A stretch of 64,000 nucleotides of DNA from Escherichia coli. Lineage in GTDB: Bacteria; Pseudomonadota; Gammaproteobacteria; Enterobacterales; Enterobacteriaceae. Made by a program: the position numbers. Each line of letters opens with the position of its first letter. The stretch's first letter is position 1. The DNA lies in NCBI RefSeq assembly GCF_003991155.1, contig NZ_CP031293.1, one strand, 5' to 3'. This document shows, piece by piece, positions 1-18,000 of this stretch.

Positions 1-3000
1 CGTTGTTGTTGGTATTCATCAAATATGCGCGTCAAAAGTTCCTCAAACGGAATGGGACGCATAATATCCCCCATAACCCTCTCCTTAGCTTATACAGATA
101 TCATTGAGTGACCGGTGTTGAGAAATCCGGTGGTTTAGGGGGATAGAGCAACAATCGCACCACTCTTGCCAGGTTTGGCGGGAAATATAAAAAAATGTGA
201 GGCGGCTCGAAACTTAATGGCTTTTTGTGAATGAACTCACAGGTGCCAAATGAGAATTAAAATCACTCCTGAAAATTATTATTGCCAGCCCATTTATCAC
301 TTTTTCTCTTTTCTCAAAATCAGTGATTCCTTATCATTATGATAAAGAGTGCAGGAGGGGTTAAATATTTGAACGCAATCGTTTAACTACGTTTTCTAAA
401 TTTCAGTATACCTTTTCTTCGCTGTAATAAAGTCGTCAGGAGTATCAATATCTAAAATTATTTCTGCATTTTCTATTTCGACGGAATAATGTTCTCCCAT
501 AAGGAGTGCCTGACGCATATTGGTGACATTGGGTCGCTGGATTGCCTGCATCAGGCATGGTTTTGACACTAAAATCGGATGGCCGGGGATACCTTTATGG
601 AGTGGCAGTATTGCGCCATCATTACGTAACGGCCAGATTTTTCTAAAAATATCGATGGTGAGGGTTGGCATGTCACCGTGGGTGAGAAAACAATGTTCTG
701 TTTGCACCGCGGGTACTGCGGCCTTTACTGATGTCAGTAAACCCTGCGCATAATCTGGGTTGTGGATAATAGTGATATTACTCTGGTTCGCATAACGTTC
801 GTGCAGTTCATTACCACGATAGCCGGTGACTAAAATAATTCGGCTACAAAACTGCAACGCATTTTTGATACTTGCATCAAGAATTGTTCCCTGTTGCCAG
901 GGTAACATCATTTTCCATTGCCCCATTCTTGATGATAATCCTGCGGCGGTAATTATACAGTCGATGGCTGACATAGTGATTCCATTATTTACAGGAGCTA
1001 ATAACGCCTGATAATTGCGTTACTTCCTGATGGATTAAGTTGAGGGTAATTTATCCCAGAGAGGTCCATAAAGACGCGTGAAAAGTATAATTGACCCATC
1101 GGCATTATTCATTGATTTAGGCGCGCAGAAACGTCCCACTGTGATTTCTATTGTTGGTGCTGGGGGGAAAACCAGCTTGCTTTTTTGGCTGGCAGAACTG
1201 TTCCAGGCGAGCGGCAGGCGTGTATTAATCACTACGACGACACATATGTTTATGCCAACATCTCACTGGCCCGTGGTTTTCTGTCGTGATCCCGCCATGC
1301 TTCCTCATGCGTCTTTTATATCCCCCATTTCATTTTGTTTTCACAGCTGGAAAGCGAACCAGGGAAAAGTGCAGGGATTTACGCCAGAAGCGATTGATGC
1401 ACTGGTACAACGACCAGAGTGTGACGTAATTCTCATTGAGGCAGATGGCTCGCGTGGAATGCCGTTAAAAGCGCCTGATGAGCACGAACCTTGCATACCT
1501 AAAAGCAGTTGCTGCGTGATTGCTGTGATGGGAGGACATATTTTGGGTGCGAAAGTGAGCACAGAAAATGTCCATCGCTGGTCGCAGTTTGCTGATATTA
1601 CCGGGTTAACACCTGATGCAACCTTGCAACTGAGCGATCTCGTTGCGCTGGTTCGCCACCCTCAGGGGGCGTTTAAAAACGTACCGCAAGGTTGTCGGCG
1701 AGTCTGGTTCATTAACCGTTTTTCTCAATGTGAGAATGCGATTGCGCAAAGCGAGCTCCTTCAACCGCTGCAACAACACAACGTAGAGGCAATCTGGCTG
1801 GGCGATATACAAGAACATCCTGCAATCGCGCGCAGATTTGTGAATTAGCGGCCCGGGTATTCCGGGTTACTGAAAGGATATCCATTGAGGTTGGTATGAA
1901 TATTTTCACAGAGGCTGCAAAACTCGAAGAGCAAAATTGTCCGTTTGCGATGGCGCAAATTGTTGATAGCCGAGGCTCAACCCCCCGCCATTCTGCACAA
2001 ATGTTAGTGCGCGCCGATGGTTCTATCGTCGGTACAATTGGTGGCGGAATGGTTGAACGGAAGGTGATTGAAGAGTCGCTTCAGGCATTGCAGGAACGTA
2101 AGCCGCGATTATTCCATGGACGTATGGCTCGTAACGGTGCGGATGCTGTCGGGTCAGATTGTGGAGGTGCAATGTCAGTATTTATCAGCGTCCATGGTAT
2201 GCGTCCACGTCTGGTGTTGATTGGTGCGGGGCATGTCAACCGGGCGATAGCCCAGAGTGCGGCGCTATTAGGATTTGATATCGCCGTTGCCGATATTTAT
2301 CGCGAAAGCCTCAATCCTGAACTATTCCCACCATCAACCACGCTTCTCCATGCTGAGTCGTTTGGTGCGGCAGTGGAAGCACTGGATATTCGCCCTGATA
2401 ATTTTGTCCTGATTGCCACGAATAATCAGGATCGTGAAGCCCTCGACAAACTCATTGAACAACCCATTGCATGGCTGGGGTTGCTGGCAAGTCGCCGCAA
2501 GGTTCAGCTTTTCCTGCGCCAATTGCGTGAGAAAGGCGTGGCTGAAGAACATATTGCCCGTTTACATGCGCCCGTTGGTTACAACATAGGTGCGGAAACG
2601 CCGCAGGAGATCGCCATCAGCGTGCTGGCAGAAATATTACAGGTGAAAAATAACGCGCCGGGTGGGCTGATGATGAAGCCTTCTCATCCTTCCGGACACC
2701 AGCTGGTGGTGATTCGTGGTGCGGGGGATATCGCCAGTGGTGTAGCGCTACGTCTGTATCATGCGGGTTTTAAAGTGATCATGTTGGAAGTGGAAAAACC
2801 GACAGTGATTCGTTGTACCGTGGCGTTTGCCCAGGCCGTGTTCGATGGCGAAATGACGGTCGAAGGCGTCACCGCCCGCCTGGCAACCAGCTCTGCGGAA
2901 GCGATGAAACTTACCGAACGCGGATTCATCCCTGTGATGGTAGATCCCACCTGTTCATTGCTTGATGAACTGAAACCGCTTTGCGTGGTGGACGCTATTC

Positions 3001-15000: not shown

Positions 15001-18000
15001 GGAAACGATGGTAATTCGCGAGTCATCCTCCATCCATGCCAGCGATGTCACGCTTTCCATGTGACAATGTTGAATAACGGGAGTCTGATAGTGCCCCTGA
15101 ACCTGGTAGTCGGCGGCATCGATTGTTTGTTGGACATTGCCCGTCGACATAGTGCTTTGTTTTAGTAAATTGCCGCCGTTATGGATTGGTTCAGCGTCAT
15201 CAGCCAGCGCCGCTTCTGGGGTGGTGATAACGGGTAATTCTTGCCACTCAATGCTGACCAATTGCGCCGCTTTTTCTGCCGTGAGTTCATCACGAGCCAC
15301 GACGATGGCAACGGCGTCACCATGGTGACGAACATGGCGAGTTAGCAGTGCGCGATCGGCGGTATCGCGCTTGTTTTCGTCAAGTGTCCAGGCATGCCCA
15401 GCTGTAGCGAATGGGATATCAGGCACATCTTCCCAGGTAAAAATCGCCAGTACGCCCGGTAAACTTCTGGCTTGTTCATCATTAATACTTACGGCATAAC
15501 CATGTGCGATAGGGCTACGTACATATTTCGCGTAACACATGCCCGCCATAACATAATCGTCAGTATATCGTGCCCGCCCGGTGACCTTAGCAATGGCATC
15601 TACGCGCATGCATGATTCACCTGTAGCGGTTGCTTCCCGCGCTTCCATAGAAATCCCCTCGATTTGAACATTTGGTTCTTATGGCAAAGATTTAGTCTAA
15701 GCAGGCAAGATTTACGCCAGAAACGACGATAAGCGTTAAGGGAGGAAGGAAGTGTGATGATGTTAAAAAAACACAGATATGATACGAAACAGGACCCTGA
15801 ATAGGGGCAGTGATACGTATCAATATGAGTGGCGATAAAATCAATGTGATAAATTGGGATTATTACGCATCAGGATGGGAAATAGGGTAAATGAGTCAGG
15901 AAATTCGATACATCTACAGTGAATATTTTGCTGATGATACTTCCCTTTGCCAAATGAAATTAACCTCTTTCTCTATTACCGCGTTTTTCCAGAAGCAAGA
16001 GATTGGGTATCAAGAGGCTGGCTGCTATGATATGGCGTCTTGTTTTTTAAGCGAGGAAAGATTTTGAGTGCGGGACGCCTGAATAAAAAATCTCTGGGTA
16101 TCGTGATGTTGTTATCGGTTGGACTGCTTTTGGCGGGCTGCTCGGGTAGCAAATCATCCGATACAGGAACGTATTCCGGCTCCGTTTACACCGTGAAACG
16201 GGGGGATACGCTATATCGTATTTCGCGCACCACGGGAACCAGCGTAAAAGAGCTGGCGCGACTGAACGGCATTTCCCCCCCTTACACCATTGAAGTTGGT
16301 CAGAAACTAAAACTGGGTGGGGCGAAAAGTAGCAGTACACGTAAATCAACCGCCAAATCAACGACCAAAACCGCATCGGTTACACCGTCATCAGCAGTAC
16401 CGAAATCTTCCTGGCCGCCAGTAGGGCAACGTTGTTGGTTATGGCCAACGACAGGGAAAGTTATCATGCCGTATTCGACAGCTGATGGCGGCAATAAAGG
16501 GATTGATATCTCAGCTCCACGGGGTACACCTATTTACGCCGCGGGTGCAGGAAAGGTGGTGTATGTGGGCAACCAGCTGCGTGGCTACGGTAATCTCATC
16601 ATGATTAAACACAGTGAAGATTACATTACGGCTTACGCTCATAATGACACGATGCTGGTAAATAATGGGCAAAGCGTGAAGGCTGGGCAAAAAATCGCCA
16701 CTATGGGGAGCACTGATGCGGCATCTGTTCGCCTGCATTTCCAGATTCGTTACCGTGCAACGGCAATTGATCCGCTACGTTACTTGCCGCCTCAGGGCAG
16801 CAAGCCAAAATGCTGATGGCGAATTAATCAGCAGTCAGCAGCGCGGCACTTGCTAAGGAGAGCGTAAGGTTTATAATGCCTTACGCATCTCGAAGCGGGC
16901 GTAGTTCAATGGTAGAACGAGAGCTTCCCAAGCTCTATACGAGGGTTCGATTCCCTTCGCCCGCTCCAATTTATCTTCACCTCATCAACCTGCCATTTTT
17001 GCTGTATCTGATTTTCTATATTATCTTAATTCAATCGCTTCAGTCTTTTCGCAATCGCCGTAATACTTCCTCATTTTTTTTGTAAATAAAAGCGTTTACG
17101 CAATGCAATCGTCATGTATCTTAAATAGTCTTATTTAAGATGTTCAGAACTCTTTGTGTGTTTAACTAGCTGATAATTATATAATATTACGAGAGAAGTG
17201 ATAGGGCGGAATAATAACAAATGAACATTATGAAAACTGGGATGGTTCAAAATTGAAGCAATTTTGAACCATCCACAACGGATATTAGCTAAAGAACATT
17301 ACCGATACGCACAGGATACCCACGATCAGCGTAATCAGATTTCCGATGGAACGCCAGGGTTTAAGCGCTGGGATGAGATACGTTGACAGCGTAGGCATGA
17401 TGAAAAGTATCATGGCAATGAGCGGGCCGCTGATCGCGTAAATCATCGAAATCGCGTTCGGGTTAATGCAACAAACAATGAAGGTAATCAGCGATACCAA
17501 CATAATTGATAGTGCGCGGTTAAATGCACGACTTTTCTTTACACCAACCTGCTGTAATGTTGTTTTGACGACCTCTGTGGCACCTTCAATAACGCCAAAG
17601 TACGTACCCAGGAATGATTTCGACATCGCAACTACTGCGACAATAATCCCGGAAATTGACAACCATGCTGGGGCGTTCGGCAGCATAGAAAGCGCCGATA
17701 AAATGGTAACCCCTTCTTCTTTAGCCGCTTCAATATACGAAGGTGGAATAGAAAGCAGGCAGCTAAAGACAAAGAACAATACACTTATGCAGATGATGAG
17801 ATAAGCGACTTTCATAATTTTTTTGCATTTATCCATAGCATGTTCGCCATATTTTTCACGTCTGTCTATGGCAAACGTAGAAATAATGGGCGTATGGCTA
17901 AAAGCGAAAACCATCACGGGAATCGATATCCATATCTGGTGAAGGGTATTCTGATTGAACTCTACCTGGGTTGTTAATAGATCAGGTTGCCAACTACCGA

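Follow-up and report, generated by a model that had tools for sequence, protein, structure and literature searches.

A predicted operator for the sigma-54 activator YgeV in the anaerobic purine and uric-acid catabolic locus of Escherichia coli

The stretch of DNA considered in this study, 64,000 nucleotides of Escherichia coli sequence (NCBI RefSeq assembly GCF_003991155.1, contig NZ_CP031293.1; hereafter the window), opens with the right-hand part of the locus for anaerobic catabolism of purines and uric acid, which includes the gene for the sigma-54 activator YgeV and, divergent from it, the operon that begins with ygeW. The cluster is a published and functionally resolved system, the reductive (2,8-dioxopurine) uric-acid pathway, described in papers from 2022 to 2025, with its chemistry worked out between 2023 and 2025, and its sigma-54 promoters were published in 2015. 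What is new here is a predicted DNA site for YgeV, the palindrome TTMTCA-N3-TGAKAA, which I consider to be probably the operator of that protein. The wider explanation, in which the published pathway is expressed from sigma-54 promoters under the inferred control of YgeV and CRP, is very probably correct.

When 13 spacers between ygeV and ygeW are aligned, little is conserved beyond the sigma-54 site, a CRP-like TGTGA-N6-TCACA, a TATCA-N3-TGATA whose columns are invariant, and additional TGATA half-sites. A matrix for the box was trained on 14 palindromes found upstream of ygeW outside E. coli and scored on 63,986 positions of the window. The five top matches all fall within the first 16 kb, three of them in spacers upstream of sigma-54 promoters, and the best score in the remaining 48 kb is 12.8 bits, as compared to 13.7 to 22.8 bits inside the cluster. 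The predicted boxes are as follows, strands being given in this and later lists where one was assigned.

331 to 345: predicted YgeV box TTATCATTATGATAA in the ygfK spacer, 22.8 bits, the best of the window, a score attained by none of 2000 shuffled versions of the spacer; it lies 182 bp upstream of the sigma-54 site of ygfK
1722 to 1736: YgeV-type box TTCTCAATGTGAGAA inside yqeC, 16.8 bits, third in the window; it follows the intragenic promoter by 243 bp and precedes yqeB by 160 bp
9970 to 10013: predicted YgeV enhancer of ygeW, with the main box TTCTCATATTGATAT at 9999 to 10013 (19.8 bits, 214 bp upstream of the promoter) and a weaker box at 9970 to 9984 (9.4 bits)
10097 to 10111: weak YgeV-type box near the start of ygeV, 11.5 bits, in a conserved TGATA block of the spacer alignment
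15817 to 15852: predicted YgeV boxes upstream of xdhA, AAATCAATGTGATAA at 15838 to 15852 (13.7 bits, 132 bp upstream of the promoter) and another at 15817 to 15831 (11.2 bits)

The same pairing of box and promoter extends to the left of the window, where the two best box matches in 25.5 kb are those of the ygfK spacer and of the spacer between uacT and ygfT. The latter is the very 15-mer found in the ygeW spacer and lies 179 bp upstream of the published ygfT sigma-54 motif, so that predicted boxes stand 130 to 215 bp upstream of the sigma-54 promoters of ygeW, ygfK, xdhA, and ygfT. In other genera the box is found 140 to 183 bp upstream of the ygfK sigma-54 site, and the pair also precedes a uacT orthologue and an xdh-like operon. 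Edwardsiella, Hafnia, Serratia, Kosakonia, Erwinia, Cedecea, and Photobacterium retain the divergent arrangement of ygeV and ygeW, together with the box and the sigma-54 promoter.

The occurrence of the box follows that of the activator. Where a ygeV orthologue flanks the locus, a box of at least 15 bits is present upstream of ygeW in 16 of 16 cases, as against 3 of 59 loci without such a neighbor; of these three, two also carry a sigma-54 site, and in these genomes ygeV is probably located further away. The genes behind the boxed promoters are moreover those of the YgeV iModulon, whose members are xdhABC, ygeWXY, hyuA, ygfK, ssnA, ygfM, xdhD, ygfT, and uacT, and expression of ygfT is lower in a ygeV mutant, a result known through a source that cites it. 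It is because the box tracks ygeV, because the boxed genes are those of the iModulon, and because ygfT falls in the mutant that TTMTCA-N3-TGAKAA is proposed as the YgeV operator.

Two further candidates were set aside. The fourth best box in the window (8155 to 8169, 16.1 bits) lies inside ygeX and is probably coincidental, a score of at least 12 bits being found there solely in E. coli and Kosakonia. The notion that the arms of the box (TCTCA/TGAGA) co-vary with the divergence of YgeV was dropped, since both types of arm occur within single genomes and the third position is simply degenerate.

The promoters that the boxes would serve were located with a sigma-54 matrix built from 30 motifs outside the window that had been determined by chromatin immunoprecipitation and sequencing (ChIP-seq), scored on 127,968 window positions. 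It replaced a plain scan for the consensus with three mismatches, which gave 204 matches where 229 were expected and is uninformative by itself; TGGCACACTTATTGTT, at 9783-9798 on the minus strand, was among its matches. The four sites below were all mapped in the sigma-54 ChIP-seq of Bonocora et al. 2015 (PMC4591121), and the motif names are theirs.

147 to 163, minus strand: ygfK sigma-54 promoter GTGGTGCGATTGTTGCT, identical to motif OS31; rank 9 of 127,968
1479 to 1495, plus strand: sigma-54 promoter TGAGCACGAACCTTGCA inside yqeC, which drives yqeB; motif IS34; kept in 7 genomes
9783 to 9799, minus strand: sigma-54 promoter CTGGCACACTTATTGTT of ygeW-ygeX-ygeY-hyuA-yqeA; motif OS30; rank 5 of 127,968; present in 15 of 15 genomes
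15704 to 15720, minus strand: xdhABC sigma-54 promoter CTGGCGTAAATCTTGCC; motif OS29; rank 2 of 127,968

Since about 1% of the positions scored belong to the three upstream spacers, it is very unlikely that three intergenic sites in the correct orientation would appear by chance among the top nine. Genomic SELEX (systematic evolution of ligands by exponential enrichment) with the sigma-54 holoenzyme also gave a peak within the spacer between ygeV and ygeW, according to the literature, and mutation of the site inside yqeC abolished the YqeB protein (PMC4591121).

An earlier note on this DNA, made by eye, had seen in YgeV and sigma-54 the likely layer of control, and in this its judgment was right. 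Sigma-54 sites are found at ygeW, xdhA, and ygfK and inside yqeC. Its statement that no convincing -24/-12 promoter lies upstream of ygeW does not hold, for CTGGCACACTTATTGTT is the published motif. The site was probably overlooked because its -12 element reads TTGT rather than TTGC. Measured against the consensus TGGCAC-N5-TTGCW, with GG at -24 and GC at -12, the sites of xdhA (TGGCGT-N5-TTGCC) and ygfK (TGGTGC-N5-TTGCT) carry both dinucleotides, while that of ygeW has GG at -24 and GT in place of GC at -12. The deviation is itself conserved. The ygeW spacer holds exactly one strong sigma-54 site in each of 15 genomes, from about ten genera. In 14 of these it stands 69 to 110 nt upstream of the start of ygeW; in the other, a Photobacterium, the distance is 232 nt. 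In all 15 the -12 element is TTGT, TTGA, or TTGG, never the consensus TTGC, as is also the case in a Rhodocyclaceae genome. This feature may influence how firmly the closed complex is bound. Upstream of ygfK the sites in other genomes lie at 65 to 92 nt, where the start of ygfK falls inside the locus compared.

A sigma-54-like site inside ygeW (8776 to 8792, minus strand, 14.4 bits) was rejected as a promoter, since other genera lack a counterpart at that position and the part of the ChIP-seq table examined has no entry for it; it is probably a chance match. Elsewhere in the window, the best match of all to the sigma-54 matrix is ATGGCACAGTGGCTGCA (42057 to 42073, plus strand), and a match at 47623 to 47639 on the plus strand, CTGGCACGCGATGTGCA, is the published intragenic site IS33 in ptrA.

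Between box and promoter lie predicted sites for CRP.

226 to 241: perfect CRP consensus TGTGAATGAACTCACA, placed between box and promoter of ygfK
9842 to 9857: CRP-like site with one mismatch in the ygeW spacer, TGTGGGGTTGATCACA on the plus strand

At the level of sequence, both agree with TGTGA-N6-TCACA and are conserved in position. In nine of 15 other genomes a CRP-like site with one or two mismatches is centered 49 to 51 nt before the ygeW sigma-54 17-mer, and in six of 11 genomes a site with zero to two mismatches lies 70 to 71 nt before that of ygfK, the remainder having it at 40 to 41 or 79 nt. The predicted sites fit both the native Crp site that Li et al. mention in the ygeV-ygeW spacer (PMC12507026) and the apparent suppression by glucose described in the literature. 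The consensus for IHF, WATCAANNNNTTR, has no match in the looping regions between box and promoter, and CRP may therefore also supply the bend in the DNA. Sites for FNR, another global regulator to be considered below, follow the consensus TTGAT-N4-ATCAA; upstream of xdhA, TTGATACGTATCAC (15809 to 15822) agrees with it at nine of 10 positions and overlaps the xdhA enhancer region. It may be a site of anaerobic control, or it may simply be two YgeV half-sites in the opposite arrangement.

The box inside yqeC deserves separate comment, as it lies on the far side of its promoter. The offset of 243 bp from promoter to box is found in seven of seven genomes, and the arms of the palindrome are conserved while the residues they encode vary (FSQCEN, FYQSDN, LYQIDN, DYQNEA, FSHCDN, LSQNEN). 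By this pattern the box could be a natural enhancer that acts from downstream, within coding sequence.

YgeV itself consists of a GAF domain (residues 1 to 150), a PAS domain (about 160 to 260), an AAA+ domain, and HTH_8. The AAA+ sigma-54 interaction domain (PF00158, residues 272 to 439, E-value 1e-70) and the Fis-type helix-turn-helix (PF02954 HTH_8, residues 548 to 587) are those of a bacterial enhancer-binding protein, and both the Walker A motif GESGTGKE (300 to 307) and GAFTGA (347 to 352) are invariant in 11 YgeV orthologues. No receiver domain was found in the domain analysis, and hence YgeV does not qualify as a two-component response regulator; the label "orphan response regulator" given to it in the paper that calls it IsrR (PMC9426417) does not fit, because the protein lacks that domain.

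Four cysteines of the GAF domain, C84, C87, C93, and C109, do not vary among 16 orthologues. How widely they are distributed was judged by an exhaustive profile search, a word-indexed protein search with the N-terminus of YgeV having given fragments and frameshifted junk. The profile search with the GAF domain found about 990 sequence clusters, mostly activators of 570 to 600 residues. The motif C84-x2-C87-x5-C93 (CxxCx5C; encoded within 10168 to 10623, residues 1 to 152) is invariant in 94 aligned sequences, namely 93 full-length representatives and YgeV of E. coli, and C109 is invariant in the YgeV clade only. From the sequence, one may reasonably guess at a metal or iron-sulfur site formed by these cysteines.

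Putting these elements together, I picture control of the locus in the following way. YgeV would bind the predicted TTMTCA-N3-TGAKAA sites, which precede the promoters of ygfK, ygeW, xdhA, and ygfT by 130 to 215 bp and follow that of yqeC at 243 bp, and once bound to a box it would remodel the closed complexes of sigma-54. From its position between box and promoter, CRP-cAMP would tie the expression of ygeW and ygfK to carbon limitation. The region of YgeV that comprises the cysteine-bearing GAF domain and the PAS domain would take the inducing signal, most likely urate or an intermediate of the pathway, possibly combined with redox state. A bolder version, to which I give distinctly less than even chances, would make YgeV a dedicated activator of urate and purine catabolism in Enterobacterales, with TTMTCA-N3-TGAKAA enhancers of which one lies inside coding sequence downstream of its promoter, and with a CxxCx5C(+C) GAF domain whose metal or iron-sulfur center makes activation depend on anoxia or redox state together with a purine ligand. 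If that were true, the redox-conditional GAF domain would be a new type of sensor, common to roughly a thousand sequence clusters of sigma-54 activators.

Several considerations weigh against control by YgeV as just described. The yqeC promoter is reported (PMC4591121) to be induced by nitrogen limitation, which could point to NtrC and not to YgeV. The xdhA box is the weakest of those at promoters (22 of 2000 shuffles of the spacer reach its score, p about 0.01), and it does not have support across genera, since xdhABC is not beside ygeV in the other genera sampled. A literature search found no paper reporting a binding site for YgeV. A massively parallel reporter study of 2026 saw no consistent footprints in the YgeV iModulon promoters under its conditions, and the iModulon is almost silent across 1,035 RNA sequencing samples. 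Finally, ygeV is among the genes most strongly induced by indole in enterohaemorrhagic E. coli, where the protein is described as IsrR (PMC9426417).

This last observation, joined with the lower expression of LEE, the locus of enterocyte effacement, in an isrR mutant and the attenuation of Citrobacter rodentium (PMC9426417), would be explained if YgeV were mainly an indole-sensing regulator of virulence and its purine neighborhood incidental. I find this the least credible of the alternatives: the divergent ygeV-ygeW arrangement with box and promoter persists from Edwardsiella to Photobacterium, as listed above, a protein that lacks a receiver domain is not an orphan response regulator, and the effects on virulence genes may be indirect. 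Nearly as improbable is the suggestion that binding of sigma-54 is largely inert and that the operons are transcribed from CRP-dependent sigma-70 promoters without YgeV. It is true that many sigma-54 sites of E. coli lack a known transcript (PMC4591121), that ygeW and ygfK are preceded by conserved CRP sites, and that a simple scan shows hexamers resembling those of sigma-70 in the spacers, yet these are no more numerous than in shuffled sequence. However, in about ten genera the sigma-54 sites keep both their sequence and their position, unlike the spacer around them, the site inside yqeC is required for production of YqeB, ygfT expression goes down without ygeV (by way of the citing source), and the genes constitute a single co-regulated iModulon.

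A more serious alternative, though still an unlikely one, accepts the boxes as real conserved sites and assigns them to some other regulator, such as a global anaerobic or metal-responsive one that recognizes A+T-rich inverted repeats, with YgeV binding elsewhere. The link between YgeV and the box is indeed a prediction from sequence, the motif is A+T-rich and similar in composition to sites of the Fur and FNR types, and the FNR-like TTGATACGTATCAC overlaps the xdhA enhancer region. Against this are the tie between box and ygeV (16 of 16 loci with the gene, 3 of 59 without), the placement of the box at enhancer distance from a sigma-54 promoter in every case, the absence of scores above 12.8 bits in the 48 kb outside the cluster, and the orientation of the half-sites, TATCA...TGATA being the reverse of the TTGAT...ATCAA of FNR.

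The pathway that would be under this control begins, according to the literature, with the oxidation of hypoxanthine and xanthine to urate by XdhABC. XdhD-YgfM, encoded to the left of the window, reduces urate to 2,8-dioxopurine, as reconstituted by Li et al. 2025 (PMC12507026). In the same work, YgfK and SsnA reduce 2,8-dioxopurine and open its six-membered ring to give ureidomethyl-hydantoin, whose hydantoin ring HyuA opens, yielding 2,3-diureidopropionate, and YgeW with phosphate removes one ureido group as carbamoyl phosphate; YgeY takes off the other, and YgeX converts the resulting 2,3-diaminopropionate to pyruvate and ammonia. An independent study, that of Liu et al. (bioRxiv 10.1101/2025.04.24.650524), found that E. 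coli YgeW and YqeA yield ATP from 2,3-diureidopropionate in vitro. The two studies of 2025 disagree as to which group YgeW cleaves, the 2-ureido (with albizziin as product) or the 3-ureido, a question listed in a 2025 commentary. MocA, YqeB, and YqeC are described in the literature as serving the maturation of the molybdenum (selenium-dependent) cofactor, and YqeB, YqeC, and SelD were tied to selenium-dependent activity of the molybdoenzymes by Liu et al. in Clostridium sporogenes and C. difficile. In E. coli, mutants lose the conversion of urate to acetate, and uric acid strongly induces ygfK and ygfT (literature).

These reports overtake the earlier note in its description of the cluster as functionally unresolved, the enzymes having been reconstituted, and in its view that the substrate of the ygeW-yqeA arm is not established, for that substrate is 2,3-diureidopropionate (PMC12507026; bioRxiv 10.1101/2025.04.24.650524). 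Its guess at ring opening of a purine or hydantoin type was right in kind, the published pathway opening the purine ring by way of a hydantoin-type intermediate. It was also right to expect an ATP-making end module of carbamoyltransferase and carbamate kinase, but had the order of the reactions wrong: the ureido group becomes carbamoyl phosphate, which gives ATP and carbamate, and carbamate is not turned into carbamoyl phosphate.

Gene positions were taken from open reading frame calls, the RefSeq annotation of an identical genome, and scans for Pfam domains and NCBIfam equivalogs, and all three bear out the gene list and gene order of the note. The genes and the terminators between convergent units are as follows.

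1 to 74, minus strand: 5' end of ygfK, 2,8-dioxopurine reductase (annotation of the identical genome; function from PMC12507026); the gene continues beyond the left end of the window, with ssnA, ygfM, and xdhD after it
396 to 974, minus strand: mocA, molybdenum cofactor cytidylyltransferase (equivalog TIGR03310, 214.5 bits against a cut-off of 186.45)
1078 to 1848, plus strand: yqeC, selenium cofactor biosynthesis protein (TIGR03172, 238 bits; PF19842)
1896 to 3521, plus strand: yqeB, XdhC-like maturation protein for the selenium-dependent molybdenum cofactor (TIGR03309, 417 bits)
3530 to 3555: G+C-rich hairpin terminator between convergent yqeB and yqeA, with a 10-bp stem (8 G-C pairs) followed by a run of T
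3562 to 4494, minus strand: yqeA, carbamate kinase, making ATP from carbamoyl phosphate and ADP (TIGR00746, 385.9 bits against a cut-off of 358.25; formation of ATP in vitro with YgeW, bioRxiv 10.1101/2025.04.24.650524)
4542 to 5927, minus strand: hyuA, hydantoinase (TIGR02033, 673.8 bits; assays in PMC12507026, with C. difficile HyuA according to the figure legend; reconstitution in vitro in the Liu preprint)
5979 to 7190, minus strand: ygeY, M20 amidase, which takes off the second ureido group (TIGR03526, 721.6 bits; assayed with YgeX, PMC12507026)
7248 to 8444, minus strand: ygeX (dpaL), diaminopropionate ammonia-lyase, yielding pyruvate and ammonia (TIGR03528, 651 bits; PMC12507026, Liu preprint)
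8502 to 9689, minus strand: ygeW, knotted carbamoyltransferase, phosphorolysis of 2,3-diureidopropionate (NF005538, 825 bits; PMC12507026, bioRxiv 10.1101/2025.04.24.650524)
10168 to 11946, plus strand: ygeV, sigma-54 activator, GAF(Cys)-PAS-AAA+-HTH_8
11956 to 11979: hairpin terminator between convergent ygeV and xdhC
11986 to 12465, 12462 to 13340, and 13351 to 15648, minus strand: xdhC, xdhB, and xdhA, respectively; xdhABC encodes xanthine dehydrogenase, with its molybdenum, FAD, and iron-sulfur subunits (annotation; XdhA also by NF007426, 1483.7 bits)

The NCBIfam equivalog scores of YgeW, YgeX, YgeY, HyuA, and YqeA exceed their cut-offs, as do those of the maturation set for selenium-dependent molybdenum hydroxylases, yqeB, yqeC, and the cytidylyltransferase (TIGR03309, TIGR03172, and TIGR03310). 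In the identical genome the adjacent 25 kb or so to the left continues with ygfK-ssnA-ygfM-xdhD, xanQ, guaD, ghxQ, ygfS, ygfT, and uacT, and with these the set that defines the reductive uric-acid cluster (ygfK, ssnA, hyuA, ygeW with carbamate kinase, ygeY, ygeX, and an XdhD-type molybdoenzyme) is complete. Positions 1 to 16000 of the window are E. coli chromosome, identical at 100% to several E. coli chromosomes and matched in 5,407 of 5,426 complete genomes.

The likely transcription units are ygfK onwards; mocA; yqeC-yqeB, with its internal sigma-54 promoter; ygeW-ygeX-ygeY-hyuA-yqeA; ygeV; and xdhABC. The 57-bp gap between ygeW and ygeX contains a G+C-rich hairpin (8474 to 8495, minus strand, nine pairs of which seven are G-C, with a weak T tail) that could attenuate read-through of the operon. 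An Rfam scan of positions 1 to 17200 found no riboswitch or leader RNA, a tRNA being its sole match. In RefSeq, xdhA encodes 765 amino acids from a start at 15648; the end given in the note, 15609, matches an in-frame ATG 39 nt downstream, which I take to be the start of the 752-amino-acid protein of K-12. Beyond the locus, tRNA-Gly (16895 to 16965) is directly followed in this strain by yqeG (about 17285). In K-12, the remnant of the ETT2 type III secretion system sits between the two, so that the island is apparently absent here.

The significance of the locus, already published, is that it permits gut bacteria to remove host urate and so bears on gout and hyperuricaemia; a strain of E. coli Nissle engineered to over-express it lowered serum urate in mice, according to the literature. 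This study adds a map of the control regions that can be tested: four sigma-54 promoters, a predicted YgeV operator, CRP sites in defined positions, and a sensor GAF domain bearing cysteines. Such a map might account for the narrow range of conditions to which E. coli confines expression of the pathway, and it could guide rational de-repression as an alternative to promoter replacement.

How does the locus compare with systems already known? The reductive uric-acid cluster described for E. coli and for gut anaerobes (PMC12507026; Liu et al. 2025 preprint) is this same locus, YgeW, YgeX, YgeY, YqeA, YgfK, SsnA, XdhD, and HyuA (the last in the reconstitution by Liu et al.) being encoded in the window or just to its left. 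The enzymes are identical, and the difference lies in the native promoters, which are not described in those papers except for the Crp site in the ygeV-ygeW spacer. In its chemistry the end of the pathway resembles the arginine deiminase pathway, in which an ornithine carbamoyltransferase and a carbamate kinase likewise proceed from phosphorolysis of a ureido group through carbamoyl phosphate to ATP, and here ygeW and yqeA sit in one operon. The substrate, however, is 2,3-diureidopropionate and not citrulline, and YgeW belongs to a distinct family of knotted transcarbamylases.

In its predicted regulation, the closest parallel is the control by PrpR and CRP of the sigma-54-dependent prpBCDE operon, which, like NtrC-type enhancers, employs inverted repeats 100 to 200 bp upstream of a -24/-12 promoter. 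In both cases an activator without a receiver domain, sensing a ligand, would act from inverted repeats, with CRP adding catabolite control. Unlike the PrpR and NtrC types, the locus considered here has CRP sites at a fixed offset in looping regions that do not match the IHF consensus, and one of its boxes lies downstream of the promoter, inside coding sequence; the sensor of YgeV, moreover, is a GAF domain with CxxCx5C and not a PrpR_N domain. The PrdR-like sigma-54 activators of Clostridia (NF041552) provide the best NCBIfam model for YgeV (384 bits) and share with it their length and the order of sensor, AAA+, and HTH_8, and certain relatives of the YgeV GAF domain can be aligned with PrdR along most of their length. 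YgeV nonetheless differs from PrdR, its score being far under the cut-off of 795 bits and its match limited to residues 268 to 588, and the published enhancer of the PrdR type is TGT-N10-12-ACA, in place of the TTATCA-N3-TGATAA predicted for YgeV.

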